Source: an uncultured Actinomycetes bacterium
GTDB lineage: Bacteria; Actinomycetota; UBA4738; JBBDTT01
Direction of reading: 5' to 3'
DNA: 64,000 nucleotides
Assembly (NCBI GenBank): GCA_963742735.1
Contig: CAVUMN010000002.1
Coordinates: 64,001-128,000, forward strand
Part shown: positions 13,390 through 58,822 of the stretch, one piece after another
Layout: every line of letters starts with the position of its first letter
Position numbering within the stretch: position 1 is the first letter of the stretch
Notes under the pieces: generated by a model
The model's database searches: none
Told to the model about the DNA's origin: nothing
What the model saw: the letters and a program-made list of their open reading frames with translations, nothing else
Made by a program: the position numbers and the translations under genes

Positions 13390-15830
13390 GCGGGGCCTGG
13401 CTGGCCCCGGTCGCGGCCGGGGCGTTCTGGGCCGGCATCCTTGCGGCGGCCGGGGCGGGGCTCCGGGGTGGCTGGGCGTGGGCCGCGCTGGTGGCGGGCT
13501 GCGCGATGACCTCGGCCGCGGCGCTGCTGGTCGTGTACTCCGGGCCGGACGGGGAGCCGCTGTTGCGCGGCGCCGGGTTGCTTCCGCCGGTCGAGGCCGA
13601 GGGGCATCGGGGACGGGTGCTGGGAGCGGTCCGCGGCGTCCCGGCGCCTCCCGGACCGCGCTCGTCGGTGGCGGCGTCCCTGTTGCTGGCGGTGGTCGGG
13701 ATGTCGCTGCTCGGGGCGGGGTGGTTCTCGGTGCGCGACTCGGCCTCGGGGCGGTCGGTCCTGGCGGGGATCGGCGGATACGTGCGGGCCGAGGGGGTGA
13801 TGTCGACCGACCCGCAGATCGGGCCGTTCGGGTGGTCGGCCCGGGCGCGCCTCGAGCGGGTGGCGTCGGACGCGGGAGCGTGGCGGGTCCACGAGCCCGT
13901 GTGGCTGCAGGGTCGCGGGCCGCCGCCGCCCGTCGAGCTGGGGGACCGGGTGCGGCTCTCCGGCGCGGCCGGCGAGATCCCCACGGGCGACTTCGGTGAG
14001 TACTTGCGTACGCAAGGAATCGCCGCGACGCTCCGCGTATCGGAGGTCGAGCGGACCGCTCCGCCGGCCAACCCGCTGCTTCGCGCGGCCAACGCGGTCC
14101 GCAACGCGCTGCGCCGGGCGGCGCTGGAGCTGTGGCCGGAGCGACGGGCCGGGCTGTTCCTCGGCCTCGCCCTGGGCGACACGTCTCGCCTGGATCCCGG
14201 GCTGGAGGAGGACTTCCGGGCCACCGGCCTCGGACACCTCCTCGCGGTGAGCGGCTCGAACGTGGCGATGTTCCTCGGCCCCATCCTGATGGTGGCGGGG
14301 GCGGCGCGCGCCGGGCGACGGACCCGGTTCGTGGTGGGGATCGGGTCCGTGGCGTTCTTCGCGCTGCTGACTCGGGCCGAGCCGTCGGTCCTGCGCGCCT
14401 CGGTCATGGCCGGGCTGGTCCTGGTCGGGGTCTTCCTCGGTCGGGCCCGGTCGACCCCGGCCGTGATGGGGACGGCCATCCTGATCCTGCTGGCGTTCGA
14501 TCCGCGGCTGGCGTCGGCACTCGGGTTCCAGCTGTCGGTGGCGGCGACGGCGGGGATGGTCGCGTTCGCCACGCCCATCGCCGACCGGATCCCCGGGCCG
14601 AGGGCGGTGGCGATCGCCACAGGGGCGACCCTCGGGGCGCAGGCGGCGGTGACCCCGCTCCTGTTGTTTCGGTTCCACGTCGTGCCCACCGTGGCGCTGC
14701 CGGCGAACGTGCTGGCGTTTCCCGCCGTCGCGCCGGCCATGCTGGTCGGCCTGGCGGCGGCGGGGCTGTGGCTCGTCTGGCCGCCGGCGGGGGAGGCCCT
14801 CGCCTCGGTCGCGAACATGCCGATGGCCTACCTCTCCGGCGTGGCCGACCGGATGGCGACGGCGCCGCTGCCCTCGCTGACCTCCGACGGGGGGCTGGAC
14901 GCGTTCGTCCTCGGGATGGCCGTCCTGGCCTGGCTCGCCTTCAGGGTGCATCGGGCTCGCCGGCCGCGGACGCGCGACCCGGGCCGGCGGCGGGGGATCG
15001 CGGCGGCGGTCGTCATGGCCGTGGCGCTGCCCGCGCTGGTGTGGGGCCGCGCGCTGCGGGCCGGGCCGCCGGGGTCGCTCGAGGTCGTCTTCTTCGACGT
15101 CGGGCAAGGCGACGCGGCCCTGGTCCGCTCGCCCCAGGGCGCCGCGGTGCTGATCGACGCAGGCCCCGAACCCGACCAGGTCGCGGCCGAGCTCGCCGCC
15201 GAGGGCGTCCACCGGCTCGACGTGGTGATCGCCACTCACGCTCACGCCGACCACGTCGCGGGATTCCCCGCGGTGCTTGCCCGGTTCCCCGTGGGGCTGA
15301 TGCTGGAGCCCGGATGCGGCGGCGAGTCGCCGGCGTACGAGGACCTGGTCCGCGCCCTGAGGGACGAGGAGATCACGCCGGCGCATCCACGGCCGGGCGA
15401 CGCCTACCGGGTGGCCGACCTGCGCATCGACGTCCTCGGCCCGCCGGCCTGCTTCCGGGGGACCGAGTCCGACGAGAACAACGACTCGATCGTCGTTCGG
15501 ATCTCGGCCGGCCCGGCGACCGTGCTGTTCACCGGCGACGTCGAGGAGCCCGCGCAGCTGGCGATCCTGGAGGCGGGGGTCGACGTCCGGGCCGCGGTCC
15601 TGAAGGTGCCGCACCACGGCGGCGGGACGTCCATGGACGAGTTCCTGCTCGAGGTGCACGCCGCGCTCGCCGTGGTCAGCGTCGGCGCCGGCAACGACTA
15701 CGGGCACCCGGTGGAGTCGGTGCTGGTGACCCTTCGCGCCGCGGGCGCCCAGGTGGTGCGCACCGACCAGGCCGGAGAGGTGGTGGTTCGGTTCGGCCCC
15801 GACGGGCCGTACGTAGAATCGCCTCCGTGA
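13386..15830 (+). CDS. comEC: ComEC/Rec2 DNA uptake channel
   Basis: GL.HLLAVSG.N, GFQLS, DVGQGD, HAHADH, LKVPHHG, N.YGHP. Confidence 0.93.
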   Translation: MSGAWLAPVAAGAFWAGILAAAGAGLRGGWAWAALVAGCAMTSAAALLVVYSGPDGEPLLRGAGLLPPVEAEGHRGRVLGAVRGVPAPPGPRSSVAASLLLAVVGMSLLGAGWFSVRDSASGRSVLAGIGGYVRAEGVMSTDPQIGPFGWSARARLERVASDAGAWRVHEPVWLQGRGPPPPVELGDRVRLSGAAGEIPTGDFGEYLRTQGIAATLRVSEVERTAPPANPLLRAANAVRNALRRAALELWPERRAGLFLGLALGDTSRLDPGLEEDFRATGLGHLLAVSGSNVAMFLGPILMVAGAARAGRRTRFVVGIGSVAFFALLTRAEPSVLRASVMAGLVLVGVFLGRARSTPAVMGTAILILLAFDPRLASALGFQLSVAATAGMVAFATPIADRIPGPRAVAIATGATLGAQAAVTPLLLFRFHVVPTVALPANVLAFPAVAPAMLVGLAAAGLWLVWPPAGEALASVANMPMAYLSGVADRMATAPLPSLTSDGGLDAFVLGMAVLAWLAFRVHRARRPRTRDPGRRRGIAAAVVMAVALPALVWGRALRAGPPGSLEVVFFDVGQGDAALVRSPQGAAVLIDAGPEPDQVAAELAAEGVHRLDVVIATHAHADHVAGFPAVLARFPVGLMLEPGCGGESPAYEDLVRALRDEEITPAHPRPGDAYRVADLRIDVLGPPACFRGTESDENNDSIVVRISAGPATVLFTGDVEEPAQLAILEAGVDVRAAVLKVPHHGGGTSMDEFLLEVHAALAVVSVGAGNDYGHPVESVLVTLRAAGAQVVRTDQAGEVVVRFGPDGPYVESPP

Positions 15831-16801
15831 CGGGCGCGCCGATCCGGCTGCTGTGGGGGGAGGACTCGTTCCTCGTCCGGGAGGCGGCGATCGAGGCCCT
15901 CGACGGCATCCAGCCCCGCGAGGTCGACGGCGCCGACTGGTCCGGCGGCGAGACGGCCGACCTGGCCACGCCCTCGCTGTTCGGCGAGCCGCGCGCCCTG
16001 CTGATCACGAACTGCCAGGACCTGACCGACGAGGGTCTCCGCGAGCTGCGGACGTACGTGCTCTCGCCCTCGCCCGACGCGACCCTGGTCGTCACCGGCC
16101 GGGGGATCAAGGCCGCGCCGCCGATCGCCAAGGACTTCGAGAAGGCCGGGTTCAAGCCCGAACGCATCGAGCTGGCCCGCAAGGAGCTCTCCGGCTGGCT
16201 GGTCAAGCGGGCCCGGGCCCGGGACATCCAGCTCCGCGCGCCGGCGGCGAACACCCTGGTCGAGCTGATCGGGGAGAGCCCGGCCGAGCTCGACCGCGCC
16301 GTGGACCAGATGGCGGCGGCGTTCCCCGGCCGGCCCATCGAGCCCGCGCTGGTCGAGCGCCAGTTCCGGGGGCTCGGCGACCACAAGACCTGGGAGGTGT
16401 GCGACAAGGCGTTCGGCGGCGACCTGTCGGGCGCGATCCGGGCGCTGCAGGCGATGCTCGCCGGTCGGGAGGAGCCGCTGGTGATCCTCGGCGGCATCGC
16501 CGCCCGGGTCCGCGACCTCCAGCGCGTCGCCGCGGTCCCCGCCGACGTGCAGCCGAAGGACGCCGCGCGGATGGCGGGCCTCCGGTTCGAGTGGCAGTTC
16601 AAGCGCTACCGCGACACCGCCCGCCGCCAGCCGCCCGGGGCGCTCGCGTCGCTGCACCTGGCCGTGGCCAACGCCGACCGCGCGTTGAAGAACGGCGCCG
16701 GCGGCGACGTGGTCCTGCCGATGCTCCTCGCCCGCATCGCCGGCGAGGTCCCCGCCGACGCCCCCATCGAGGTCGGCTCGGTCGCCCGCGCCCTTCGCTG
16801 A
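15827..16801 (+). CDS. holA: DNA polymerase III delta subunit
   Basis: LLWGED.FL, TPSLFG; position after comEC. Confidence 0.85.
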   Translation: MTGAPIRLLWGEDSFLVREAAIEALDGIQPREVDGADWSGGETADLATPSLFGEPRALLITNCQDLTDEGLRELRTYVLSPSPDATLVVTGRGIKAAPPIAKDFEKAGFKPERIELARKELSGWLVKRARARDIQLRAPAANTLVELIGESPAELDRAVDQMAAAFPGRPIEPALVERQFRGLGDHKTWEVCDKAFGGDLSGAIRALQAMLAGREEPLVILGGIAARVRDLQRVAAVPADVQPKDAARMAGLRFEWQFKRYRDTARRQPPGALASLHLAVANADRALKNGAGGDVVLPMLLARIAGEVPADAPIEVGSVARALR

Positions 16802-16888
16802 GCCCGCCCGAGCCGGGTGTGAGGCGCGCCACGGTGTGGTCGGAATCCGGCGTCTAGAATCGCGCTCCCGAAAGGACGAGTACGCCCC

Positions 16889-17773
16889 ATGGCCCCAGCC
16901 CCGCCCGTCAGGATCGTCACGGACACCACCGGCTACCTGCCGCAGGAGCTGGTTACCGAGCATGGGATCGAGCTCGTCTCTCTCTACTACTCCTTCGACG
17001 GCGCCGAGTGGCTGAAGGAGGACGACGTCGTGGACGGCGACTGGGGGCCGTTCTACGAACGGCTCACCTCGTCCCCGGGTCTGCCCACCACGCGGCCGCC
17101 CGAGGTCGAGGACTTCCGCGCGGTCTACGAGCCGATCCTGGCGACCGGCGCCGGCATCGTCTCGCTCCACATCTCCTCGGGCCTCTCCGAGACCTGCGCG
17201 CACGCCCGCAAGGCCGGCGAGCAGCTCGCCGACGAGGGGCTGGGCGCGGAGCGCATCCTGGTCGTGGACGCCGCGTGCACGGGCGGCCAGCAGGGCTTGC
17301 TGGCGCTGGCGGCCGCGCGGGCGGCGGAGGGGGGCGCCGACGCCGAGGCGGTGGCCGACCACGTCCGGCGGGCCCGTCTGGAGGCCCGGAGCTGGTTCAC
17401 GCTGGACACCCTGGAGTTCCTCAAGCGCGGCGGACGGATCGGCGGCGGCGCGGCGTGGCTCGGCTCGACCCTGAGGATCAAGCCCATCCTGACCATCCAG
17501 TCCGAGGTCCACGCGGTTGAGCGCGTCCGAACCCGCGAGCGCGCCGTCGAGCGCCTCATCGAGTTCGGCCGCGAGCTGCACGCCGGCGGCGCCGACGGGT
17601 ACTGCGTACAGCACGCTCGCTGCGAGCCGGAGGCCCGCCACGTCGTCGACCGGCTTTCGGAGGTCTACGAGCGCCCGCCCGTGTTCGTGGGGGAGATGGG
17701 CCCGGTCCTGGGGACCCATGGCGGGCCGGGGTTCCTGGGCGTCGCCGGGTTACCATCCGGCTTCCTCGAGTAG
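16889..17773 (+). CDS. DegV family lipid-binding protein (copy 1)
   Basis: IVTDTT.YLP, LEFLKRGGRIG, IKPIL, GTHGGPG. Confidence 0.9.
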   Translation: MAPAPPVRIVTDTTGYLPQELVTEHGIELVSLYYSFDGAEWLKEDDVVDGDWGPFYERLTSSPGLPTTRPPEVEDFRAVYEPILATGAGIVSLHISSGLSETCAHARKAGEQLADEGLGAERILVVDAACTGGQQGLLALAAARAAEGGADAEAVADHVRRARLEARSWFTLDTLEFLKRGGRIGGGAAWLGSTLRIKPILTIQSEVHAVERVRTRERAVERLIEFGRELHAGGADGYCVQHARCEPEARHVVDRLSEVYERPPVFVGEMGPVLGTHGGPGFLGVAGLPSGFLE

Positions 17774-17792
17774 CCATGGAGAGCCCCAAGCC

Positions 17793-18671
17793 ATGACGAC
17801 GCCGGTCACGGTGGTCACCGACACCACGGCCTACCTGCCGCGCGAGACGGTGGACAAGCACGGCCTGCGCGTGATCTCCCTCTACTACTCGTTCGGCAAC
17901 GACGAGTGGATCAAGGAGAGCGACCACGACGGCGGCGACTGGGGATCGTTCTACGAGCGCCTGTCGAGCTCCGACACCCTCCCCACCACCCAGCCCCCCA
18001 CGGTCGAGGACTTCCGTGCGGTCTACGAGCCCCTCCTGGCGGAGGGCGGAAGCGTGGTCTCGATCCACCTGTCGTCGGTGCTGTCGGAGACGTGCGCCAA
18101 CGCCCGCAAGGCGGTGGAGGAGCTCACCGAGGCCAGCCGGGGCGGGGACCGAGTCCGGGTGATCGACTCGGCGAGCACCGCGGTCCAGGAAGGGCTGTTG
18201 GCCCTGGCCGCGGCGCATGCCGCCGGGGAGGGCAAGGACGCGGACTCGGTCACGGAGGTGATCCGGTCCGCGCGGGCCGAGGCCAAGAACTGGTTCGTGC
18301 TCGACACCCTGGAGTACCTGAAGCGCGGCGGCCGGATCGGCGGCGCGACGGCGTGGATGGGGTCGGCGCTGCAGGTGAAGCCGGTCTTGACCCTCGAGTC
18401 GGGGATCCGCGCGGTGGAGCGCGTTCGGACGGCCGACAAGGCGTTCGTGCGCCTGGTCGAGTACGGCCACCAGCTCCACGGCGCCGGGGCCGACGCGTGG
18501 GCCGTGCAGCACTCCCGGCGGGAGGACGACGCCCGCAAGCTGATCGACCGCCTCTCCCACGTGTTCGGCCGCGCGCCCGAGTTCGTCTCCGAGGTAGGCC
18601 CGGTCATCGGGACGCACGCCGGTCCGGGCGCGTTCGGCCTCGGTGGCATCCCCTCCAGGTTCCTCGGCTAG
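17793..18671 (+). CDS. DegV family lipid-binding protein (copy 2)
   Basis: VVTDTTAYLP, LEYLKRGGRIG, GTHAGPG. Confidence 0.9.
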   Translation: MTTPVTVVTDTTAYLPRETVDKHGLRVISLYYSFGNDEWIKESDHDGGDWGSFYERLSSSDTLPTTQPPTVEDFRAVYEPLLAEGGSVVSIHLSSVLSETCANARKAVEELTEASRGGDRVRVIDSASTAVQEGLLALAAAHAAGEGKDADSVTEVIRSARAEAKNWFVLDTLEYLKRGGRIGGATAWMGSALQVKPVLTLESGIRAVERVRTADKAFVRLVEYGHQLHGAGADAWAVQHSRREDDARKLIDRLSHVFGRAPEFVSEVGPVIGTHAGPGAFGLGGIPSRFLG

Positions 18672-18819
18672 CTCTCCAGAAAGAGACCAGGGTCACAGTG
18701 TGCTCAAGGTCGGTCACTCTTCCCGTTCCGTACGGGCAGGACTAGAATGTGCTTGGTTCGAAGTAACTAGTCACCCGACACAGGAGCGCCCCGATGATCG
18801 AGCCACGCGAGGTCCCATC

Positions 18820-19698
18820 GTGACCTCGCCCGTCACGGTCGTCACCGACAGCACGGCCTACCTCCCGCGCGAGCTCATCGCCAAGCACGGGATCGAGCTC
18901 ATCTCCCTGTACTACAGCTTCGACGGCGTCGAGTGGCTGAAGGAGGGCGACGTCGAGGGCGAGGACTGGGGCCCGTTCTACGATCGCCTGGTCGCGTCCG
19001 AGACGATGCCGACCACCCGGCCCCCGCACGTCGAGGACTTCCGCGCGCTGTACGAGCCGATCCTGGCCGAGGGGCGAAGCATCGTCTCGATCCATCTGTC
19101 CTCCGGGCTGTCCGAGACGTGCGACCACGCGCGCAAGGCCGTGGAGGAGCTCACCGAGGAGGGCCTCGGCGGGGAGCGGGTGCACGTGGTCGACTCGGCG
19201 AGCGCGTGCCTGCAGCAGGCTCTGCTCGTGCTGGTTGCCGCCCACGCCGCGGCCGAGGGAGGCGACCCCGACACGGTCTTCGACCAGGTCCGCCGGGCCC
19301 GGGTCGAGGCGCGCAACTGGTTCGCCCTCGACACGCTCGAGTTCCTGAAGCGCGGCGGCCGGGTCGGCGGCGCCGCGGCCTGGCTGGGCTCGACGCTGAA
19401 GATCAAGCCCATCCTGACCGTGGAGTCGGAGATCAAGGCCGTCGAACGGGTGCGAACCTCCGACCGCGCGTTCGAGCGCCTGATCGAGTGCGGGCGCCAG
19501 CTCCACGGCGCGGGCGCGGACGCCTACGTCGTCCAGCACGCCCGCGCGGGGAAGGAGGCGCAGGTCCTGAGCGAGCGGCTGCACGAGGTCTTCGGCAGGC
19601 CGCCGGTGATGATGTCTGAGGTCGGGCCGGTCATCGGCACGCACACGGGGCCGGGACTGCTCGGCGTGGGCGGACTCCCGTCCAGATTCCTGGAGTAG
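18820..19698 (+). CDS. DegV family lipid-binding protein (copy 3)
   Basis: VVTDSTAYLP, LEFLKRGGRVG, GTHTGPG; GTG start inferred from paralog alignment. Confidence 0.9.
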   Translation: MTSPVTVVTDSTAYLPRELIAKHGIELISLYYSFDGVEWLKEGDVEGEDWGPFYDRLVASETMPTTRPPHVEDFRALYEPILAEGRSIVSIHLSSGLSETCDHARKAVEELTEEGLGGERVHVVDSASACLQQALLVLVAAHAAAEGGDPDTVFDQVRRARVEARNWFALDTLEFLKRGGRVGGAAAWLGSTLKIKPILTVESEIKAVERVRTSDRAFERLIECGRQLHGAGADAYVVQHARAGKEAQVLSERLHEVFGRPPVMMSEVGPVIGTHTGPGLLGVGGLPSRFLE

Positions 19699-19702: not shown

Positions 19703-22700
19703 ATGAACGAGCTGAGCGCCTCCTCGAGCTCGTCGGTCCCCTGCCCGCGGTGCGGCCGCGGGAACCGGGACACGGCCAAGTTCTGCAAGGGATGCGGCCT
19801 GTCCTTCGCGCCGGAGATCACCTGCGTGAGCTGCGGCAGCAAGCTCGAGGCCGACGCCGTCTTCTGCGACGAGTGCGGCACCGCGGTCACGGCCTCCCAG
19901 CCGGCGGTGAAGGCCCCGGTCCGCGAGTCGGCTCGACTGCCGGAGACCTTTGGGGGCGGCCGCTACAAGGTCGTCCGGTTCCTGGGCGAGGGGGGACGCA
20001 AGCGGGTCTACCTGGCCGAGGACACCCGGCTGACCCGTGAGGTCGCCGTCAGCGTCTTCAAGGCCGAGGGGGTGGACGAGACGGCGCTGATTCGCGCCCG
20101 GCGCGAGGCCGAGGCGATGGGCAAGCTCGGCGACCATCCCAACATCGTCACGATCTACGACTTCGGCGAGGAGGACGGCGGCTTGTTCCTCGTCAGTCAG
20201 TACATGTCGGGAGGCGACCTCTCGGGCATGCTCTCCCAGGCCCCGGACCGCCGGCTGGCGATCGCCGAGGTGGCGCGGATCTCCACGGAGATCGCCCGCG
20301 GCCTGGAGCACGCGCACGCGAACGGCGTGATCCACCGCGACCTCAAGCCCCAGAACGTGTGGCTGTCCCCGGACGGGACCGCCAAGCTCGGCGACTTCGG
20401 CCTGGCCCTCGCCGCCGACCGCTCCCGCCTGACCGTGGACGGGGCGATGGTCGGGACGGTCGCGTACATGCCGCCCGAGCAGGGTCTGGGCCGGCCGGCC
20501 GACGAGCGGTCGGACCTCTACTCCCTGGGCGCGGTGATGTACGAGCTGATCTGTGGGGTCCCGCCGTTCACCGGCGGGGACGCCGCGGCGATCATCTCCC
20601 AGCACGTCAGCACCGTTCCCGTCGGCCCCAGCTGGCACCGCTCCGACCTGCCCACCGCGCTCGAGCGGCTGGTGCTGAAGCTCCTGGCGAAGACCCCTGA
20701 TGAGCGGTTCCAGTCGGCCACCGAGACCCGCGAGGCACTCCAGGCCATCGAGTCGGCGTCGGGGGTCGCGCCGGCGCCCGCCGAAGGCACGGTCGCCCTC
20801 GAGCGTCTGACCGACGGCATCTTCCTTGGCCGGGAGTCCGAGATGAAGGAGCTTCGGGCGGCGCTCGACGAGTCGATCGCCGGTCGAGGGCACGTAACCC
20901 TCATTGCCGGCGACGCCGGGATCGGCAAGACGCGGCTGGCGACGGAGGTCAAGGCGTACGCCGAGCTCCGGGGCGCCCGGGTGCTCTCCGGCCGCTGTCA
21001 CGCCGGCGAGGGCGCGCCGCCGTACTGGCCCTGGGTCCAGGTGATCCGCACGTACGTCCGCGAGCGCAAGGCCGAGGAGCTCCTGGCCGAGCTCGGCTCC
21101 GGCGCCACCGACATCGCCCAGGTCGTCTCCGACGTCCGGGCCTGCCTGCCCGACCTCCCCGAGCCGCAGGTCCTGGACCCCGACCAGGCCCGGTTCCGGC
21201 TGTTCGACGCCGTCACCACGTTCCTGCGCAACGCCTCGAGCACCGGCCCGCTGGCGATCTTCATCGAGGACCTGCACCGCGCGGACGAGCCCTCGCGCGA
21301 GCTGCTGGACTTCGTATCCCGGGAGCTCGGCGGCGCGCGGATCTTCCTGCTCGGCACCTATCGCGACACCGAGCTCGGCGAGGACCACGCGCTGAACGAG
21401 CTCCACGCCTCACTGTCCCGCGAGCGCAATTACTCGCGCCTGCGCCTCCGGGGCCTGAACGAGCGCGAGGTCAAGGCGCTCCTGGAGGACGTGTCCCGCC
21501 AGACCCTGGAGACCACCCAGGAGCTCGCGCTGGTCGACGCGGTCTTCCGCGAGTCCGACGGCAACCCGTTCTTCATCGAAGAGATCCTGCGGACGCTGCT
21601 CGAGTCGGAGGTCATCTACCTGCGCGAGGGCAAGTGGGTGAGCGACGCGACCCACATGAGCGACCTGTCGATCCCGAAGTCCATCCGCGAGCTCGTGGAA
21701 CAGCGCCTGGCCCGGCTGCCCGAGGAGAGCCGGGAGCTCCTGTCGATCGCGTCGGTCATCGGCTACGAGTTCGACATGCAGACCCTGGAGACGGTGGCCG
21801 GCATCCCCGTGGCCTCGGTGTTCGACCGGGTGCGGGCGGCCGTGGACGCCGCCATCGTCTCGCCGGTCCCCGACGAGCCCAACCGGTACCGGTTCGCGTA
21901 CGGCGCCACGCGCGACGCGCTCTACGAGGAGCTTCCCGAGTCCCGCCGCTTCGAGCTGCACCGGGCCATCGGCGAGGCCCTCGAGGAGATGTACGACGAC
22001 CGCATCGAGTCCCACTTGGCCGAGCTGGCCCACCACTTCGCGCTCGCCGCCCCGCTCGGCCTGGCCGGCAAGGCCGCCGACTACTCGTGGTGGGCCGGCG
22101 AGCGAGCCGCCACGCTGGCCGCCCACGAGGAAGCGGTCCTGCACTTCACCCGGACCATCCAGCTGTTCGACACCTTGACCGAGGAGGAGCCCACCCGGCG
22201 GTGCGAGCTGCTCATCGTCCTCGGCGAGTCGCGGTGGCGGGCCGGGGACGTGCGGGGGGCGAAGGAGACGTTCCTCAAGGCTGCCGAGGCCGCCGAGAAG
22301 CACGCGCTGCGCGACCAGTACGCGCGGGCGGCGCTCGGCTTCGCCGGCGGGCCCGGCGGGTTCTCCGCCGCCGACAAGCCGGACGACCAGCTGGTCGAGC
22401 TGCTGCGCACGGCGCTCCGCGGCCTGTCCGAGCGCGACAGCCTGCTGCGCGTGCGGCTGCTGGCGCGCCTGTCCCTCGAGATGCGCCTGACCACCGACGC
22501 CGTGGAGCCGGACAAGCTCTCCCGCGAGGCGCTGGAGATGGCCGAGCGGCTGGGCGACGCGCGGATCACGCTGCTGGCGATGTACAGCCGCCAGTGGGCG
22601 ACGATGGGGCCCGACGGGCTCGAGGACGATCTGACCGCCGGCGAGGAGATCGTCCGGCTGGCCCGGGTGGTCGGCGACAAGGAGATGGACTTCCACGGCC

Positions 22701-24214
22701 ATCACCTCCGGATCCACGGGTTCCTCGCCCTGGGCGACATGGTCTCGGTCGACCGCGAGATCCGCAGCTGCGAGAAGCTGGCCCGCGAGCTGCGCCAGCC
22801 GTACTACGAGTGGCACGTGGCGGTGTTCAGGGTGATGCGGGCTCTCATGCAGGGACGGTTCGACGAGGCCGGCCGGCTGGCGAGCTCCGCGGCGGCGATC
22901 GGTGCGCGAAGCCAGCCGGAGATCGCCACCACCGTGTTCGGCGTGCACGCCCTGCTCGGGAGCCTCCACACCAACTCGATGGCCGACCTGGTCCCGGGGG
23001 GCGAGCTCTTCGCCACGAACTATCCCCACTCGGCGTGGCCCTCGGCCTACGCCTGGATTCTCACCGAGGTCGGGGAGAACGCCAAGGCCCGCCCGGTGTT
23101 CGACGGCGTGGCCCGTGACCGTTTCGCCGGCCTGCGCCGGGACTCGAATTGGCTGACCGCCATGACGTGCGGCTCCCTGGCGTGTAGCGCCCTCGGCGAC
23201 GAGGAGGCGGCCGCCGTCATGTACGAGCTGCTCTCGCCCTACGCCGACTACTGCACGTCGATCCTGACCGCCGCGGCGTTCGTGGGCTCGATCCATATGT
23301 ACCTGGGGTTCCTGGCCGAGACCATGCGCCACCTGGACACCGCGATCGACCACTTCCAGAAGGGCATCGAGGTGAACGAGCGGATCGGCGCGTACCTCCT
23401 GGTTCCGCGGACCTACTTCGGTCTGGCGAGGGCCCTGCTCGCCCGGGACGGGGCCGGCGACCGGGAGCGCGCGTCGCAGGCCATCGAGAAGGGGCTGGAT
23501 CGAGCCCGCGAGGTGCAGATGCCGGGCGAGGTCGAGCGCCTGCTGGGGCTGAAGCTCGGCGGGCAGGGGATCACCTCGATCGACACACAGGCGTCGATCT
23601 ACCTGGTGGCGAAGTCGGTGGAGCAGGCCCGGCCCGACCTCACCCGCGCCGTCGCGCCGGACGGGACCGTGACGATCATGTTCTCCGACATCGAGGACTC
23701 AACGGTTCTCACCGAGCGGCTCGGAGACCGGCAGTGGCTGGAACTCCTGGAGGGGCACAACCAGATCATCCGCGAGAACTGCGCGAAGCATGACGGCTAC
23801 ACGGTCAAGTCGCAGGGCGACGGCTTCATGCTCGCCTTCGCCAGCGCCCGCAAGGCCATCCACTGTGCGATCGACGTGCAGCGGGCGATGGCGGAGCACC
23901 GCGGTGCGCACCCCGAGGCGCCCCTCAAGGTCCGCATCGGGCTGCACACCGGCGAAACGCTTCGCTCCGAGGAGGACTTCTTCGGCAAGAACGTTATCCT
24001 CGCCGCTCGGATAGCCGCCCAGGCGACCGGGGACCAGATCCTGGTGTCGTGGCTGCTCCGCGAGCTCGTGTCGAGCACCGGTGAGTTCGGGTTCGGCAAC
24101 GAACGCGAGCTGGAGCTGAAGGGCCTCTCCGGCAGCTATCGAGTCTTCGAGGTCCAGTGGGATGGCGCTACCGCGCCGGGAGCCGCACCTGCAGTGAGCT
24201 CACCTCGATCCTGA
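19703..24214 (+). CDS. Multidomain signalling protein: double Zn ribbon + Ser/Thr kinase + AAA/STAND-type ATPase + helical repeats + class III nucleotidyl cyclase
   Basis: 4x CxxC; HRDLKPQN, DFG; Walker A GDAGIGKT, Walker B IFIEDLH, GNPFF; FSDIEDST, GDGF, RIGLHTGE. Confidence 0.9.
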   Translation: MNELSASSSSSVPCPRCGRGNRDTAKFCKGCGLSFAPEITCVSCGSKLEADAVFCDECGTAVTASQPAVKAPVRESARLPETFGGGRYKVVRFLGEGGRKRVYLAEDTRLTREVAVSVFKAEGVDETALIRARREAEAMGKLGDHPNIVTIYDFGEEDGGLFLVSQYMSGGDLSGMLSQAPDRRLAIAEVARISTEIARGLEHAHANGVIHRDLKPQNVWLSPDGTAKLGDFGLALAADRSRLTVDGAMVGTVAYMPPEQGLGRPADERSDLYSLGAVMYELICGVPPFTGGDAAAIISQHVSTVPVGPSWHRSDLPTALERLVLKLLAKTPDERFQSATETREALQAIESASGVAPAPAEGTVALERLTDGIFLGRESEMKELRAALDESIAGRGHVTLIAGDAGIGKTRLATEVKAYAELRGARVLSGRCHAGEGAPPYWPWVQVIRTYVRERKAEELLAELGSGATDIAQVVSDVRACLPDLPEPQVLDPDQARFRLFDAVTTFLRNASSTGPLAIFIEDLHRADEPSRELLDFVSRELGGARIFLLGTYRDTELGEDHALNELHASLSRERNYSRLRLRGLNEREVKALLEDVSRQTLETTQELALVDAVFRESDGNPFFIEEILRTLLESEVIYLREGKWVSDATHMSDLSIPKSIRELVEQRLARLPEESRELLSIASVIGYEFDMQTLETVAGIPVASVFDRVRAAVDAAIVSPVPDEPNRYRFAYGATRDALYEELPESRRFELHRAIGEALEEMYDDRIESHLAELAHHFALAAPLGLAGKAADYSWWAGERAATLAAHEEAVLHFTRTIQLFDTLTEEEPTRRCELLIVLGESRWRAGDVRGAKETFLKAAEAAEKHALRDQYARAALGFAGGPGGFSAADKPDDQLVELLRTALRGLSERDSLLRVRLLARLSLEMRLTTDAVEPDKLSREALEMAERLGDARITLLAMYSRQWATMGPDGLEDDLTAGEEIVRLARVVGDKEMDFHGHHLRIHGFLALGDMVSVDREIRSCEKLARELRQPYYEWHVAVFRVMRALMQGRFDEAGRLASSAAAIGARSQPEIATTVFGVHALLGSLHTNSMADLVPGGELFATNYPHSAWPSAYAWILTEVGENAKARPVFDGVARDRFAGLRRDSNWLTAMTCGSLACSALGDEEAAAVMYELLSPYADYCTSILTAAAFVGSIHMYLGFLAETMRHLDTAIDHFQKGIEVNERIGAYLLVPRTYFGLARALLARDGAGDRERASQAIEKGLDRAREVQMPGEVERLLGLKLGGQGITSIDTQASIYLVAKSVEQARPDLTRAVAPDGTVTIMFSDIEDSTVLTERLGDRQWLELLEGHNQIIRENCAKHDGYTVKSQGDGFMLAFASARKAIHCAIDVQRAMAEHRGAHPEAPLKVRIGLHTGETLRSEEDFFGKNVILAARIAAQATGDQILVSWLLRELVSSTGEFGFGNERELELKGLSGSYRVFEVQWDGATAPGAAPAVSSPRS

Positions 24215-25976: not shown

Positions 25977-26112
25977 GGAGAGGATTGTGACGCGTTGGCG
26001 GGGGTTGCGGAAATGGGCACCTTGACCGGCGTTCGCCCCAGTGATTGGGTAATCGTCAGATTTGTCCAACTGAGCTGGACTGCGCTCCGCGGTCCCGAGG
26101 GGAGAAGGCACC

Positions 26113-27654
26113 ATGCGTGCTCGGTCGATCGCTCTGCTCAGCATCCTGACCATTGTCGCAAGCATGTTCGGCATCACCACGGCGACGGCCGGCGGGCCGA
26201 TCACGATCATGGTCGACGACGACGGCATGGCCGTCCCGGGGAACTGTGGGTCCACGACGGTGACCCACGACACCATCCAGGAAGCGGTGGACGCGGCGCT
26301 GGCCGGGGACACCATCAGCGTCTGCCCGGGGGACTACCCCGACCCGGTCAACGTGGACAAGACCCTGGAGATCCTGGGTGCCCAGGCCGGGGTCGACGCC
26401 CGCACCCGGCCGGGGACGCTCTCCTTGGAATCCGCCGTGGGGCCGGAAGGTGAGAGCTTGCTGGGATTCTTCGTCACGGCCCCGAACGTGGTCATCTCCG
26501 GGTTCATGTTCATCGGCTGGTCCGACGCCGTCAGGAGCACCTCGGAGGCCGCGAGCCTCCGGGTCCTCGACAGCATCTTCTCCGAGAACTTCGCCGGTCT
26601 CCGGATCCAGTCGAACAACAGCCTGGCCCGTCGGAACCTGTTCGCCGACAACTTCGTCGGCATCCTGATGTTGGGCGGGACGAAGGCCCTCTTCACGCTG
26701 AACGACTTCCTGGGCAACGACGTCGGGATCGACCTCGAGGGGGACACGGACGACTTCACCGGTCAGGGAGAGCCGCCTCCCATCAATCCCTTCCCGACGG
26801 ACGTCCGGATCCTGCGGAACGAATTCCTGGGCCCCGATCTGGGTCCCGGCGAGGTGGGGACCAACACCATCTCGCAGACCGTGGGGATCGAGGCCTCGAG
26901 CACGACCGGCCTGATCATCACGGAGAACACCATCTCCGAGGTCCTGATCGGGATATGGCTCGCCGGAGGCACCGACGCGACGACCGTCGAGCTGAACGAC
27001 GTGAGCGCATTCGATGTGGACCTCCTCCTCGATGACGGCGGGCAGATCAGCACCACCGACGTCTGCTGTGCGCCGAACTCGAACGTGACGGTCAAGTCCA
27101 ATCGCCTCACGAACAGCGGCTCGGGCATCGCGATCTTCTCCCTGACCGGGTCCATGGTCGTGTCCCGCAACACCATCACGGGGAACAACGGCGGGATCTT
27201 CAACGACTCCGGCGCCCAGGTGAACGCGGCCGAGAACTGGTGGGGCGCCGCCTCCGGCCCCTCGGACTGGTCCACGGGGACCGGCGACCCGGTGTCGCCG
27301 GACGTTCGGTTCTTCCCGTGGTCCACGAACGCGACGTTCACGGCGTTCTCCAAGTGCAAGAACACGCCGACGGCCGCGAACCAGACCATCAACGGGACCA
27401 CCGGCAACGACATCCTGTGCGGCGGCGGCGGTCAGGACACCATCGACGGCAAGGCGGGTAACGACCTCATCCTGGGCGACGCCGGTAGCGACATCCTGAT
27501 GGGTGCGCTGGGCGCCGACGCCATTCTGGGCGGCCAGGGAGACGACACCCTCAACGGCAACGCCGGGTTCGATCACCTGCAGGGACAGTCCAACTCCGAC
27601 TCGTGTCTGGTCGGGGTGGACGGAGGACAGACGGCCACCTGCGAAGGACCCTGA
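26113..27654 (+). CDS. Secreted right-handed beta-helix protein with C-terminal RTX-like Ca-binding repeats (paralog 1)
   Basis: Signal peptide, TIQ.AVDAA..GDTI.VCPG.Y, NAAENWWG, G.xG.D.L nonapeptides. Confidence 0.8.
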   Translation: MRARSIALLSILTIVASMFGITTATAGGPITIMVDDDGMAVPGNCGSTTVTHDTIQEAVDAALAGDTISVCPGDYPDPVNVDKTLEILGAQAGVDARTRPGTLSLESAVGPEGESLLGFFVTAPNVVISGFMFIGWSDAVRSTSEAASLRVLDSIFSENFAGLRIQSNNSLARRNLFADNFVGILMLGGTKALFTLNDFLGNDVGIDLEGDTDDFTGQGEPPPINPFPTDVRILRNEFLGPDLGPGEVGTNTISQTVGIEASSTTGLIITENTISEVLIGIWLAGGTDATTVELNDVSAFDVDLLLDDGGQISTTDVCCAPNSNVTVKSNRLTNSGSGIAIFSLTGSMVVSRNTITGNNGGIFNDSGAQVNAAENWWGAASGPSDWSTGTGDPVSPDVRFFPWSTNATFTAFSKCKNTPTAANQTINGTTGNDILCGGGGQDTIDGKAGNDLILGDAGSDILMGALGADAILGGQGDDTLNGNAGFDHLQGQSNSDSCLVGVDGGQTATCEGP

Positions 27655-27720
27655 GCAACTGTGGCATTGTTCCGCACACACGAACGGGCGCCGGCTGGGG
27701 GCCCAGAAGGAGGAAGAACG

Positions 27721-29292
27721 ATGCGTCGTCGGTCGGTCGCTCTACTCAGCATCCTGACGCTTGCCGCGGGACTCCTCGGGATCACCGGGGCCCACGCTGG
27801 CGGCCCCATCACCCTGGCGGTGGACGACGACGGCATGGCCGTCCCGGGGAACTGCGACTCGGCGACGGCGACGTTCACCACGATCCAGGCGGCGGTGGAC
27901 GCCGCCCTGGCGGGGGACACGATCCAGGTGTGCCCGGGGACCTACGAGGAACAGGTGTACGTGGACAAGACCCTGGAGCTCCTGGGGGCCCAGGCCGGGA
28001 TCGACGGCCGCACCCGGCCCGGAACGCCGGCCGTGGAGTCCGTCCTGGACTCGGACGCGGTCGACCAGACGGGCATCTACGTCGACGCCCCGAACGTGGT
28101 CATCAACGGGTTCCTCATCCAGGGCTATGACGCCGGCATCAGCACCAACATCATCATCGACCCGGTCCCGGCCTCCGGGCTCCGGGTCCTGAACAACATC
28201 CTCTTCCAGAACGGGACCGGTCTCCAGATCGAGTCGGACAACAGCCTCGTCCGCCGAAACCTCTTCGAAGACAACGTCCTCGGCATCCACATGCTCACCG
28301 GGACGAAGGCCACGTTCACGACCAACGAGTTCCTTGGCAACCACGCCGTCGGCATCCTGCTCGAGGGCTGCTTCGAGTACTGCGACTCGGGCATCAACGG
28401 TTTCGGCCCCCCGACGGACGTGACCATCTCGACGAACGAGATCGTGGGCCCGGAGATCACGGAGACCGGTGGCGGGGGCGGTGGGGGCCCGACGGTTGGG
28501 ATCGAGGCCCACAACACGACCGGCGTGCGGATCACCGGGAACAACATCTCGGTGGTGGATTTCGGAATCTGGCTCGCTGAGGGCAACGACGCGGTGACCG
28601 TCGAGACGAACACCGTGGACGACACGGGGATCGCCCTCCTGCTGGGCTTCCTCCGGAGGGAGGTCAACACGGAGGGGATTGGCGGCGGTCCGAACTCGAA
28701 CGTCACGGTCAAGTCCAACCGCTTCACCAACAGCGAAACGGGCATCGAGATCGACGACTTCTCGCTCTCCGGGAACTTCGTCGTCTCCCGCAACACCATC
28801 ACGGGGAACGATGACTGGGGGATCGTGAACTTCTCCAGTGCCCAGGTGAACGCGGCGGAGAACTGGTGGGGCGCCGCCTCGGGGCCGTCGGACTGGTCCA
28901 CCGGGACCGGTGACTCGGTTTCGCCCAACGTCCGGTTCTTCCCGTGGTCCACGAACGCCACGTTCACCACGTTCGCCAAGTGCAAGAACAAGTACACGGC
29001 CGGCAACGACACCGTCAACGGGACCACCGGCAACGACATCCTGTGCGGCGGCGGCGGTCAGGACACCATCGACGGCAAGGCGGGGAACGACCTCATCCTG
29101 GGCGACGCCGGCAGCGACATCCTGATGGGTGCGCTGGGCGCCGACGCCATCCTGGCCGGCCAGGGCGACGACACCCTGAGGGGCAACGCCGGGTTCGACT
29201 CCCTGCAGGGCCAGGCCAACTACGACTTCTGCGATGTCGGGGTCGACTCAGGACAGATCGCCACCTGCGAGGAAGTGCCCATAGGACCCTGA
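27721..29292 (+). CDS. Secreted beta-helix/RTX protein (paralog 2)
   Basis: Same architecture; GGAGG RBS. Confidence 0.8.
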   Translation: MRRRSVALLSILTLAAGLLGITGAHAGGPITLAVDDDGMAVPGNCDSATATFTTIQAAVDAALAGDTIQVCPGTYEEQVYVDKTLELLGAQAGIDGRTRPGTPAVESVLDSDAVDQTGIYVDAPNVVINGFLIQGYDAGISTNIIIDPVPASGLRVLNNILFQNGTGLQIESDNSLVRRNLFEDNVLGIHMLTGTKATFTTNEFLGNHAVGILLEGCFEYCDSGINGFGPPTDVTISTNEIVGPEITETGGGGGGGPTVGIEAHNTTGVRITGNNISVVDFGIWLAEGNDAVTVETNTVDDTGIALLLGFLRREVNTEGIGGGPNSNVTVKSNRFTNSETGIEIDDFSLSGNFVVSRNTITGNDDWGIVNFSSAQVNAAENWWGAASGPSDWSTGTGDSVSPNVRFFPWSTNATFTTFAKCKNKYTAGNDTVNGTTGNDILCGGGGQDTIDGKAGNDLILGDAGSDILMGALGADAILAGQGDDTLRGNAGFDSLQGQANYDFCDVGVDSGQIATCEEVPIGP

Positions 29293-29397
29293 CGAGCGCG
29301 ACGGAACCCTTGACCTGATCCGGGAGGCGTGCTTGGCTTCGACTGATTTGTCCACTTGAACCGGGCGGCGGTTGGCGGCCCCGAAGGAGGAACCACG

Positions 29398-30945
29398 ATG
29401 CGTGGCAGGTCCATCGCTCTGTTCAGCATCCTGACGCTCGTGGCGGGCCTTCTGGGCCTCACCGCGGCGTACGCCGGCGGCTCCCCGACCACCCGCGTGG
29501 TGGACGACGACGGCATGGCGGTCCTGGGGAACTGCGACTCGGCGACGGCGACCTTCTCCACGATCCAGGCGGCGGTGGACGCGGCGAACACCGCTGACAC
29601 CATCAAGGTGTGTCCGGGGCTGTACGAGGAAGCGGTGGACGTGGGCAAGACCCTGGAGATCCTGGGTGCCCAGTCCGGGATCGACGGCCGCACCCGTCCC
29701 GGGACGCTCGCCGGGGAATCCGTGGTGAGCCCGCTCAATGAGCCCGGTGCGGGCTTCTACGTCAACGCCCCGAGCGTGGTCATCAACGGGTTCACCCTCC
29801 AGCTGTGGGAAGGGTCGGCCATCGACAGCACGCAGAGCCCTCCGTTCGTGGCCGCCGGTCTCCGGGTCCTGAACAACATCTTCAGGCAGAACGGAACCGG
29901 TCTCCTGATCGGCTCGGACAACAGCCTGGCCCGGCGGAACCTGTTCGAGGACAACTTCTTCGGGATCCACATGGTCACCGGGACGAAGGCCACGTTCACG
30001 ACCAATGAGTTCCTCGGCAACGAGATCGGCATCCTGCTCCAGGGGCAGATCCTTTGTCAGGGGTACTGCACCGGGGGTGCCCAGGGCTTCCCGACGGACG
30101 TCACTATCTCGACCAACGAGATCGTGGGGCCCGAGCAGGCGCCTGCCGGCTCAGGAGAGCCCACGGGGATCGAGGCCAACAACACGACCGGCCTGCGGAT
30201 CATCGGCAACACCATCTCCGAGGTCGGTGCGGGCATCTGGTTGGTCGGGGGCAACGACGCCACGACCATCGAGACGAACACCGTGACCGACACGGGACGC
30301 GCGGTCCTGCTCGGCCTCGGCATCTTCGAGAACGCGATTACCTACATCAACGCCAACCCGAACTCGAACGTGACCGTCAAGTCGAACGGCCTCACGAACG
30401 GCGGAATCGGCGTCCTGCTGGAGGAGTTCTCCCTGGAGGGATCGATGGTCGTCTCCCGCAACACGATCTCGGGCAACGAGTTCGGGATGTCCAATTTCTC
30501 GAGCACCCAGGTGAACGCGGCCGAGAACTGGTGGGGCCACGCCTCCGGCCCGTCGGAGTGGTCGAACGGGACGGGTGACGGCGTGGGAGTCGAGATCCGG
30601 TTCTTCCCGTGGGCGACCAACGCCACGTTCACCGCGTTCGCCAAGTGCAAGAACACGCCGACGGCCGCGAACCAGACCATCAACGGGACCACCGGCAACG
30701 ACATCCTGTGCGGCGGCGGCGGTCAGGACACCATCGACGGCAAGGCCGGAAACGACCTCATCCTGGGCGACGCCGGCAGCGACATCCTGATGGGCGCGCT
30801 CGGCGACGACGCCATCCTGGGTGGCCAGGGCGACGACACCCTGAACGGCAACGCCGGGTTCGACCACCTGCAGGGCCAGGCCAACACCGACACCTGCATC
30901 GTCGGGGTGGACGGAGGACTGACCGCCACCTGCGAGGGACCGTAA
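29398..30945 (+). CDS. Secreted beta-helix/RTX protein (paralog 3)
   Basis: Same architecture; GGAGG RBS. Confidence 0.8.
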   Translation: MRGRSIALFSILTLVAGLLGLTAAYAGGSPTTRVVDDDGMAVLGNCDSATATFSTIQAAVDAANTADTIKVCPGLYEEAVDVGKTLEILGAQSGIDGRTRPGTLAGESVVSPLNEPGAGFYVNAPSVVINGFTLQLWEGSAIDSTQSPPFVAAGLRVLNNIFRQNGTGLLIGSDNSLARRNLFEDNFFGIHMVTGTKATFTTNEFLGNEIGILLQGQILCQGYCTGGAQGFPTDVTISTNEIVGPEQAPAGSGEPTGIEANNTTGLRIIGNTISEVGAGIWLVGGNDATTIETNTVTDTGRAVLLGLGIFENAITYINANPNSNVTVKSNGLTNGGIGVLLEEFSLEGSMVVSRNTISGNEFGMSNFSSTQVNAAENWWGHASGPSEWSNGTGDGVGVEIRFFPWATNATFTAFAKCKNTPTAANQTINGTTGNDILCGGGGQDTIDGKAGNDLILGDAGSDILMGALGDDAILGGQGDDTLNGNAGFDHLQGQANTDTCIVGVDGGLTATCEGP

Positions 30946-31013
30946 GCGAAGAGGGCTCCATTCCATCGGCACGTGAACGGGCGGCGGTGGCCGGCCCAGA
31001 GGGAGGACGAACG

Positions 31014-32552
31014 ATGCGAGGACGCGCGGCTCTGCTCTGCATCCTGACCCTGGCCGGAAGCCTCTACGGGATCATCGGGGCCCAGGCCGGTCCCGGGGCG
31101 ATCACCATCATGGTCGACGACGACGGTATGGCCGCGGTCGGCAACTGCGGCTCGGCCACGGTCACCCACGACACGATCCAGGAGGCGGTGGACGCCGCGA
31201 TCTCCGGGGACACCATCAGGGTGTGTCCGGGGACCTACCCGGACCCGGTCCTCGTGGACAGGACCCTGGAGATCCAGGGCGCCCAGGCCGGGGTCGACGC
31301 ACGCACCCGGCCCGGAACGCTCTCCGCGGAATCCGTCCTCGACGGGGTGGACGGCGAATTCGACGGGATCGCCGTCGCCGCCCCGAACGTGGTCATCTCC
31401 GGGTTCACGTTCCTCAACTGGGACCGGGCGGTGGGGACGGCGGCGAGCGCGTCGCCCGCGCTCCGGGTCCTGGACTCCATCTTCACGAACAACTTCACGG
31501 GCGTCCACATCGACTCGGACAACAGCCTGGTCCGTCGGAGCCGCTTCCAGGACGGCACCCTCGGCATCCGGATGGTCGGAGGGACGAAGGCGCTGTTCAC
31601 GCTGAACGAGTTCGAGGGCAACATCGTCGGCATCCTGATCGAGGGGGGCTTCTGCGACCTCTGCGCCCAGGGAACGCCCGTGGTGAGTCTGCCTGCGGAC
31701 ATCCGGATTCATCGCAACGACATCCAGGGGGGCGCGGTGATTCCGACCGGACCGTTGTCTACGACGGGGATCGAGTCCGAGGCCGCGACCGGCCTGACGA
31801 TCACGGAGAACACCATCTCCGGGCTCGGCCGCGGAATCTGGCTCATCGAGGGCAACGACACGGTGACCATCGAGCTGAACGACGTGGACGACTCGACGGT
31901 CGCCCTCCTCCTGGGCTTCGGCCCGAAGGAGGTCGAAACCACGGGGATCTGCTGCTTCGGCCCGAACTCGAACATCTCGGTGAGGTCGAACCGGTTCACC
32001 AACGGGGAAACGGGCGTCCAGGTGGAGGAGGAGTCCTTCACGGGGAACTTCGTCCTCTCCCGCAACACCATCTCCGGGAACCTGGACTGGGGGATCGTGA
32101 ACTTCTCGGGTGTCCAGGTGAACGCGGCGGAGAACTGGTGGGGCCACGCCTCGGGGCCCGACGACTGGTCGAACGGAACCGGTGACGACGTGTCGCCCGA
32201 CGTTCGGTTCTTCCCGTGGTCCACGAACGCCACCTTCACGGCCTTCGCCAAGTGCAAGAACACGCCTACGGCCGCGAACCAGACCATCAACGGGACCACC
32301 GGCAACGACATCCTGTGCGGCGGCGGCGGTCAGGACACCATCAACGGCAAGGCCGGCAACGACCTCATCCTGGGCGACGCCGGGAGCGACATCCTGACGG
32401 GCGCGCTGGGCGACGACGCCATCCTGGGCGGCCAGGGCGACGACACCCTGAACGGCAACGCCGGGTTCGACTCCCTGCAGGGCCAGGCCAACAACGACTT
32501 CTGCGACCTCGGGGTGGACTCGGGACAGTCGGCCACCTGCGAAGGATCTTGA
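31014..32552 (+). CDS. Secreted beta-helix/RTX protein (paralog 4)
   Basis: Same architecture; GGAGG RBS. Confidence 0.8.
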   Translation: MRGRAALLCILTLAGSLYGIIGAQAGPGAITIMVDDDGMAAVGNCGSATVTHDTIQEAVDAAISGDTIRVCPGTYPDPVLVDRTLEIQGAQAGVDARTRPGTLSAESVLDGVDGEFDGIAVAAPNVVISGFTFLNWDRAVGTAASASPALRVLDSIFTNNFTGVHIDSDNSLVRRSRFQDGTLGIRMVGGTKALFTLNEFEGNIVGILIEGGFCDLCAQGTPVVSLPADIRIHRNDIQGGAVIPTGPLSTTGIESEAATGLTITENTISGLGRGIWLIEGNDTVTIELNDVDDSTVALLLGFGPKEVETTGICCFGPNSNISVRSNRFTNGETGVQVEEESFTGNFVLSRNTISGNLDWGIVNFSGVQVNAAENWWGHASGPDDWSNGTGDDVSPDVRFFPWSTNATFTAFAKCKNTPTAANQTINGTTGNDILCGGGGQDTINGKAGNDLILGDAGSDILTGALGDDAILGGQGDDTLNGNAGFDSLQGQANNDFCDLGVDSGQSATCEGS

Positions 32553-32565: not shown

Positions 32566-32832
32566 CTAGGAGGCCTGCGAGGTCTGGCGGTTCAGCGCCT
32601 TGGCGGCGCGGGACTTGCGGTTGGCGGCGCGGCGCTTGTGGATGACGCCCTTCGACGCGGCCTTGTCCAGGGACCGGGTGAGGTCGCGGAGACGCTCCTG
32701 ACCGGTCGCGGCGTCCTCGGCCTCGCCGACGCGGCGGGCCTTGGTCTTGAGCGCGCTGCGCACGCCCTTGTTGCGTTCCCGCGCGCGCTCGTTCTGCCGG
32801 TTGCGCTTGATCTGTGACTTGATGTTCGCCAT
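32566..32832 (-). CDS. rpsT: 30S ribosomal protein S20
   Basis: [24 protein letters not shown]. Confidence 0.97.
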
Positions 32833-49909: not shown

Positions 49910-50016
49910 GACCGATTTGTTCGACCCCGCCGGGCACCGTACCTGCGTGGGGAGTTCCACGGCTTCTTCACATCTGCGCGGCCGAGCGCGTCCGGGCCGG
50001 TAGTACGATGCCGACG

Positions 50017-52882: not shown

Positions 52883-52902
52883 GCCGGGGTAGCATCCCGC
52901 CC

Positions 52903-53814: not shown

Positions 53815-53869
53815 AGATTCCCCCCTTCCTCAACGCGCGGCCGGGGATGTACCCTGCGCCGAGTGCCCC

Positions 53870-58719: not shown

Positions 58720-58822
58720 TCGATTTCCTCCGGGAGTGGGAGCGCTGCGGGCGAGTACTGCCAGACTCATTCCAGGGAGGGGCCTCGATTCCTGCCCGGC
58801 GCGCCGAAGCCGCCGGCTCGAG

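Follow-up and report, generated by a model that had tools for sequence, protein, structure and literature searches.

How did four neighbouring, similar genes in an uncultured Actinomycetes bacterium come to resemble each other in pairs that change along their length? The genes, G1 to G4, lie in the window analysed here, 64 kilobases (kb) of a 224,693-base pair (bp) contig, and an earlier note, written from the sequence, had described them as a recombinational mosaic. We consider it likely that the locus consists of four paralogs of a secreted beta-helix/RTX protein in a tandem array, which was shaped by old homologous recombination and by homogenisation of the RTX part. The note had placed the genes correctly, and the paralog motifs that it quoted are found in the alignment as described.

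26113..27654, plus strand: G1, 513 amino acids (aa), with signal-peptide-like N-terminus, beta-helix, and RTX roll
27721..29292, plus strand: G2, paralog of 523 aa, AlphaFold model with a mean pLDDT of 86.9
29398..30945, plus strand: G3, paralog of 515 aa
31014..32552, plus strand: G4, paralog of 512 aa

The four genes are arranged head to tail on the plus strand, i.e. they are tandem paralogs, and the spacers between them are 66-105 nucleotides (nt) long. The pairwise identities range from 61% to 69%, and in the main helix segments every pair is only 52-66% identical. All four open reading frames (ORFs) are intact.

Change of tree along the genes

We denote by 14/23 the tree that pairs G1 with G4 and G2 with G3; the two alternatives are denoted 13/24 and 12/34. 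The alignment contains 153 informative nucleotide sites, i.e. 71 for 14/23, 49 for 13/24, and 33 for 12/34. To the left of alignment column ~948 the three trees are represented by 64, 21, and 15 sites, respectively, and to the right of it by 7, 28, and 18 sites. The maximum chi-square (max-chi2) permutation test yielded p values of 2e-4 for nucleotides and 6e-4 at the codon level. For columns 1-948, the approximately unbiased (AU) test rejected both alternatives to 14/23 (p~2e-4), which confirms the pairs that the earlier note had read in the N-terminal and central part. For columns 949-1230, 14/23 was rejected (p=0.004), also with third positions alone (p=0.03), and 13/24 was preferred. The proposed pairing of G1 with G3 and of G2 with G4 in the late helix is thus the favoured one, but 12/34 survives the test (p=0.195). 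For the gene ends the same pairing had been proposed, and columns 1501-1599 indeed prefer 13/24.

Because the breakpoint had come from the data, single-tree nulls were simulated. With a nucleotide model that includes block-wise rate variation, neither observed statistic was reached in any of 3000 simulations. With a codon model, the observed values were reached in 0 of 500 simulations for the window statistic and in 2 of 500 for max-chi2. Likelihood segmentation under the Bayesian information criterion (BIC) resulted in three segments, with the trees 14/23, 13/24, and 13/24, and a gain of 13.3 log-likelihood units (lnL) over a fixed topology. The trees for the 5′ ~950 nt and for the 3′ part are incompatible, and the recombination tests, whose failure the earlier note had named as a possible refutation, are significant. 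One major switch is solid, while a fourfold patchwork is not established. That no single tree fits can therefore be upheld, whereas a four-segment mosaic is rejected by the BIC segmentation. In particular, the grouping of G1 with G2 and of G3 with G4 that had been proposed for the cap appeared only with at least five segments and a margin of 3.6 lnL, and silent 13/24 sites are interleaved there. The blocks are as follows:

26113..27039, plus strand: 14/23 block in G1, columns 1-~960, N-terminal two-thirds of the helix
near 28653 (G2), 30321 (G3), and 31922 (G4), plus strand: ends of the 14/23 block in the other copies, from site counts, AU tests, and segmentation
28654..28950, plus strand: 13/24 late-helix/cap block in G2, columns 961-1260, from AU tests and segmentation
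27040-27324 (G1), 30322-30615 (G3), and 31923-32222 (G4), plus strand: 13/24 block in the other copies

The homologue P0006 was used as an outgroup to identify derived residues. In columns 1-170, nine of them are shared by G1 and G4 and five by G2 and G3, and in columns 301-410 six are shared by G2 and G4. As a control, though a weak one, a tandem triple of DegV genes in the same window was analysed, and it gave no mosaic signal (p=0.95). These three DegV-family paralogs (16889-19698, plus strand) are 60-68% identical, and their longest exact match is 19 nt.

Spacers, the RTX core, and the homologue P0002

Two further parts of the array and one homologue from elsewhere add to this picture. The relevant features are:

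26020..26075, plus strand: element of ~55 nt upstream of G1, common to G3 only, with a -35-like hexamer at its start
29308..29361, plus strand: second copy of the element, upstream of G3, within the 105-nt G2-G3 spacer
27655..27720, plus strand: G1-G2 spacer, 66 nt, without the element, with a motif proximal to the ribosome-binding site (RBS) that is common to the other two spacers
30946..31013, plus strand: G3-G4 spacer, 68 nt, of the length class of the G1-G2 spacer, without the element
27389..27444, 29015-29070, 30680-30735, and 32287-32342, plus strand: RTX-coding block of 56 bp, without any difference between the four genes
27350..27455 and 30641-30746, plus strand: 106-bp block identical in G1 and G3, the longest exact repeat of the array
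28460..28495, plus strand: approximate position in G2 (aa ~247-257) at which P0002 switches from G2-like to G3-like

The similarity of the upstream elements of G1 and G3 is significant in a shuffle test (p=5e-4), while the remaining five pairs of upstream regions have p values >0.3; the element is missing before G2 and before G4. A promoter role may be proposed for it; a sigma-70 scan found no promoter site. The spacers side with the 3′ ends of the genes (13/24) and not with the central 5′ blocks (14/23). Because G1 and G3 share the upstream element, the backbone of the array looks like the duplication of a two-gene block. This suggests that the block was duplicated together with the element, and the 13/24 signal in both the late helix and the tail is in agreement with it.

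Among codons for the same amino acid, 86-94% are identical in the RTX part, compared with 72-80% in the helix. Silent identity in the RTX part is above the amino-acid-matched expectation in all six pairs, which are not independent of each other (P 2e-5 to 0.03). Identity to the outgroup P0006 amounts to 58% in the RTX part and 66-83% in the N-cap, whereas the paralogs show the reverse pattern among themselves (87-97% and 63-83%, respectively). This indicates that the RTX core has been homogenised by conversion rather than kept by extreme constraint. The block shared by all four genes had been reported before with 54 bp; the block is real, but its size is 56 bp. It is located near the 3′ end and does not coincide with the main switch. 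The linker that precedes the RTX roll in G2 (28974-29024, plus strand) is divergent and P0006-like, unlike those of G1, G3, G4, and P0002; it is a patch that escaped homogenisation.

P0002, a protein of 475 aa encoded on a 4,990-bp contig, is the only close homologue found elsewhere besides P0006. As far as G2 residue ~255 it shares 84% identity with G2, and beyond this point 83% identity with G3. Of the sites that discriminate between G2 and G3, 42 match G2 and 6 match G3 in the left part, compared with 13 and 40, respectively, in the right part (p=1e-4; AU 0.016 and 0.020). P0002 therefore appears to be a 5′G2-3′G3 hybrid, and a deletion crossover of two neighbouring genes would produce this order. 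It may show that shuffling recurs, or it may be a chimera that arose in its own assembly. The tract shared by G2 and G4 is 64% identical and hence more diverged than that of G2 and P0002 (84%), so the main exchange must be old. From these identities, it probably predates the split of the lineages of the window and of P0002.

A possible history and its rivals

The following history, one of several possible, would account for the pattern. One gene would have been duplicated to yield a and b. A second duplication, of this pair together with the upstream element, would have led to a, b, a′, b′ and to the 13/24 backbone of the spacers, the late helix, and the tail. Later, central blocks of ~850 nt of two neighbours would have been exchanged, resulting in the 14/23 signal. 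The exchange could have consisted of two conversions, or a segment could have been excised at one conserved site and re-inserted at a second one. As G1 and G4 as well as G2 and G3 share derived residues, the pattern requires either two conversions or a single reciprocal swap. In a toy model, a circle that is excised at a conserved 5′ site and re-enters at a 3′ site leads to the observed order. Short conversions would keep homogenising the RTX core. Pure offset duplication (14/23 followed by 12/34) was discarded, as it fails to explain the 13/24 late helix, the tail, and the upstream element. Of the earlier proposal of segmental conversion or shuffling, recombination between the paralogs is retained, but conversion is not the only route, since the pattern results equally from unequal crossover or from excision followed by re-integration.

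All steps could have been carried out by ordinary homologous recombination between direct repeats, without dedicated machinery; RecA dependence is assumed. To characterise the gene content, 53 ORFs of the window, picked mostly by codon pattern from 196 ORFs of at least 120 aa, were scanned against Pfam. No recombinase, integrase, transposase, or reverse transcriptase (RT) was found among them, as the earlier note had claimed for recombinases and RTs. The only recombination gene among the scanned ORFs is recO (50008-50772, plus strand), a housekeeping gene in its usual place after era. None of the 25 longest pairs of inverted repeats has both arms inside the array. Two types of dedicated system were rejected, i.e. 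a diversity-generating retroelement or shufflon (no RT or site-specific recombinase among the 53 ORFs, no inverted sites within the array among these 25 pairs) and cassette antigenic variation (four intact ORFs with RBS-like motifs). A ComEC-type competence gene and, after it, an ORF that we take to be holA-like are present at 12888-16857 (plus strand). Speculatively, donor alleles might reach the array through DNA uptake.

The closest precedent is the lpl locus of S. aureus, for which excerpts of Tsuru and Kobayashi (2008, PMC2568036) describe unequal crossover and the excision and re-integration of circles as explanations of apparent conversion and translocation. Both loci consist of tandem paralogs whose 5′ and 3′ trees disagree, and both contain conserved DNA inside the genes (the inferred recombination site in lpl, the RTX core of 56-106 bp here). 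In lpl, spacers travel with gene halves, and here they agree with the 3′ ends; the excision/re-entry route of the toy model corresponds to the “apparent translocation” of lpl. In lpl, however, one conserved region is central, and the evolving unit consists of a 3′ half, a spacer, and the 5′ half of the following gene. In the present array, the near-identical stretch is close to the 3′ end, the main switch is found ~370 nt upstream of this stretch, within DNA of low identity, the exchanged unit is apparently an internal block, and the products have no lipobox and are not lipoproteins. The 12/34 signal at the 3′ end that a unit of the lpl type predicts is weak.

Several observations weigh against the history proposed above. 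The AU p values are optimistic, because the breakpoints were chosen from the data, and the codon null fits poorly (83 codons for 14/23 simulated, 52 observed). On their own, the 23 strictly silent informative sites are unclustered (p=0.33 and 0.94). In the late helix, 13/24 is not significantly better than 12/34 in the AU test, a test with six proteins does not reject a constraint of the 14/23 type (p-AU 0.22), and the bootstrap support for G2 plus G4 is only 59-77. P0002 is known as a protein without genomic context, so a chimeric assembly is possible. The GTDB scans described below recovered no orthologous locus, so that the events may have occurred in another order or direction. Lastly, no catalytic or binding residues common to the family were found.

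Two readings assume that the exchange continues. The array might be a maintained, recombinase-free shuffling locus of a high-GC actinomycete, in which whole coil blocks are swapped by neighbouring genes, Cys-containing variable loops are combined into new specificities for glycans or surfaces, and chimeras like P0002 segregate in natural populations. We think this unlikely; if true, the locus would provide a natural library of beta-helix modules, made up of secreted proteins of a family that is uncharacterised. Alternatively, it might be an actively diversifying repertoire, with frequent segmental conversion under diversifying selection and chimeric alleles within populations, comparable to antigenic-variation loci. 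The second, independent switch in P0002, the relatively recent homogenisation of the RTX core, and the hypervariable loops are compatible with this proposal. It is nevertheless improbable, because the helices are so diverged, exact repeats of at least 41 nt are confined to the RTX part and no exact match elsewhere exceeds 32 nt, each of the four intact genes has its own RBS-like motif, neither silent cassettes nor a single expression site nor a further copy of the family was found in the window, recombinase and RT genes are missing among the scanned ORFs, and distant GTDB relatives have one or two copies. The diversifying repertoire of the earlier note is thus not borne out; with this low helix identity and an old main exchange, there is no sign of an ongoing, selected system. 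Anaplasma msp2, Borrelia vlsE, and Neisseria pilE likewise form mosaics by homologous recombination of paralogous surface-protein sequences, but these systems have silent donor cassettes, an expression site, a high rate, and immune selection (PMC4534519, in excerpt), whereas here all four genes are intact and deeply diverged, and the exchanges are old.

An artefact would be the cause if segments between interleaved repeats were permuted in the contig, or if P0002 were chimeric in its own assembly. Block swaps between interleaved repeats are a known assembly ambiguity, and exact repeats of 56-106 bp are present in the RTX core. However, the exact matches that any two of the genes have in columns 850-1110 reach at most 17 nt, and G3 and G4 share no match of at least 14 nt there or in columns 1-150. 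In addition, both flanks of the RTX core prefer 13/24 in the segmentation, and the four intact ORFs are on a long contig. As the matches near the switch are so short and the RTX flanks agree, a mis-join at the main switch is unlikely, while for P0002, with its contig of 4,990 bp, an artefact may have occurred. Taken as a whole, the artefact explanation is very improbable.

The weakest alternative, a single 14/23 tree without helix recombination, in which convergence, selection, and rate variation generate the 13/24 sites and purifying selection together with a bias in third-position GC content (GC3) generates the RTX identity, is compatible with the uninformative silent sites, a GC3 of 92-93% in the array genes, and the main tree not being rejected in the late helix by the six-taxon protein test, but it is hardly tenable and already largely refuted by the single-tree simulations, the third positions of columns 949-1230, the non-coding upstream element that also groups G1 with G3, the excess of silent identity in the RTX part, and the change of affinity in P0002.

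Under the preferred reading of old homologous recombination, the array is best described as another example of a known process, in a family that is uncharacterised. Homologous recombination is well known to produce mosaics among tandem paralogs, and the process itself is no surprise. The modest value of the locus is that the case is statistically clean, that the family is apparently uncharacterised, and that non-coding DNA permits a compact history to be proposed. The natural crossover points, at G2 aa ~255 and ~310, mark swappable coil blocks and could be useful for studies on changes of specificity in such folds. The locus would gain weight if population reads revealed that chimeras are being formed.

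Fold, relatives, and genomic setting

The beta-helix families PF13229 and PF05048 are above the Pfam cut-off in the array proteins, and the RTX nonapeptide repeats (PF00353) are above it in all four. The N-termini of all four proteins are basic-hydrophobic and end with A-x-A or a similar motif, judged by eye and by hydropathy; reading of the sequences revealed neither a lipobox nor LPxTG. Such N-termini are typical of Sec signal peptides, and export is probably via Sec rather than type I secretion. They are the basis for calling the proteins secreted, as the earlier note did. No HlyB/HlyD/TolC or other type I secretion families were found among the scanned ORFs. Type I-secreted RTX proteins share the Gly/Asp nonapeptide repeats (PF00353; PMC3034196, in excerpt), but differ in the signal-peptide-like N-terminus of the array proteins and the missing type I components; actinobacterial RTX-repeat proteins without such components are already noted in that excerpt. 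The architecture thus comprises a signal peptide, a beta-helix, and a short, disulfide-rich RTX roll, and the family is apparently uncharacterised; a keyword search of the open-access literature found no description of it.

The AlphaFold model of G2, from an alignment of 27 sequences, predicts a helix of about residues 28-420 followed by a beta-roll. The top structural match of the model is the A-module of AlgE4 (Z 33.3, root-mean-square deviation 2.1, 301 aligned residues, 17% identity), followed by NosD (Z 31.1), RbmB (30.5), and an alginate epimerase/lyase, PfbA, and polygalacturonases (29-30). Besides NosD, the best matches mainly comprise polysaccharide enzymes and adhesins. The beta-helix fold is generic, however, and sharing it shows no function; a phmmer search of PDB with the G2 helix had no matches.

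Like the Azotobacter mannuronan C-5 epimerases AlgE1-7, the array proteins have a beta-helix module followed by calcium-binding nonapeptide repeats, and the paralogs are clustered on the chromosome (excerpts of PMC4444821, PMC8824271, and PMC7385640). They differ by the low identity, the N-terminal signal peptide, the single short RTX roll compared with the 1-4 R-modules given for AlgE in these excerpts, and the absence of the catalytic motif. The catalytic residues of AlgE are Y149/D152/H154/D178 (PMC8824271, in excerpt); in a sequence test, Y-x-x-D-x-H was absent from G1-G4, P0002, and P0006, and no His is invariant across them. NosD and DUF1565-like proteins (PF05048, PF13229, TIGR04247) share the fold and the N-terminal cap, but an assignment to NosD was rejected (TIGR04247 score 50-56, cut-off 300; no nos genes among the scanned ORFs). 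An RTX toxin was rejected as well (NF033943 score 40-46, cut-off 1000).

In an alignment of 16 family members, the mid-helix invariants are mainly Asn/Gly ladders, while invariant Cys, Trp, and Asp are found in the caps and the RTX part. Among the four paralogs, 9 of 76 long-loop positions are invariant, compared with 62 of 141 strand positions, and some variable loops carry Cys pairs. The proteins might be Sec-exported, calcium-stabilised rods, the variable loops of which bind different glycans or surfaces, so that block exchange would pair new sets of loops on a fixed scaffold. We give non-catalytic binding of glycans or surfaces about an even chance; polysaccharide-modifying enzymes are a possible but doubtful alternative, and some other role is less probable still.

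The GTDB scan with G2 alone yielded 50 pattern matches, none of which was confirmed. A profile scan used a pattern of the RTX tail, and 80 of 167 confirmed loci were kept. The helix part is present in only three of the 80, i.e. one copy in L001, two divergent copies in L002, and one copy, on a 5-kb contig, in L003; rpsT, lepA, and the S15 peptidase gene were not seen adjacent to these three loci. Copy number in relatives, which the earlier note had proposed as a check, is thus one or two in three distant loci, with no array among them, and on this limited evidence the fourfold array looks lineage-specific. The two distant family members of L002 (2267-5302) are arranged divergently rather than in tandem. 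A helix-only search and a short-protein search (three matches, none close) revealed no close homologue beyond P0002 and P0006. The search of 50% representatives with an untrimmed alignment was dominated by giant RTX proteins, and for the distant relative P0008 all Atlas leads were below 0.9. Named full-length relatives are from metagenome-assembled genomes of Actinomycetota. A large group of beta-helix proteins of ~730 aa with PF18998 (P0260-P0305) has an N-terminal cap that is ~50% identical to that of this family over a short stretch.

The array is situated in a chromosomal housekeeping context, with a divergent S15 peptidase gene on one side and rpsT-lepA-hemW-hrcA-dnaJ on the other. Its GC content is 66-67%, compared with ~71% in the surroundings. 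The GC content, the order of the genes, and the nearest named relatives point to an actinomycete as the host. The immediate neighbour is:

32566-32832, minus strand: rpsT, convergent with G4, its stop codon 14 nt past the end of G4

Three further observations concern the remainder of the window. A tandem pair at 57112-60418 (minus strand), without Pfam or NCBIfam match, encodes proteins of ~540 aa that have signal-like N-termini and are 66% identical. A gene at 19703-24214 (plus strand) encodes a fusion of 1503 aa with zinc-ribbon, Ser-Thr kinase, AAA_16, TPR, and adenylate-guanylate cyclase parts. At 52289-55435 (plus strand), an HD-domain gene, a gene for a SLATT_3/SLATT_1 effector with two transmembrane segments, and a TIR_2 gene are found in a row, a possible defence cluster.

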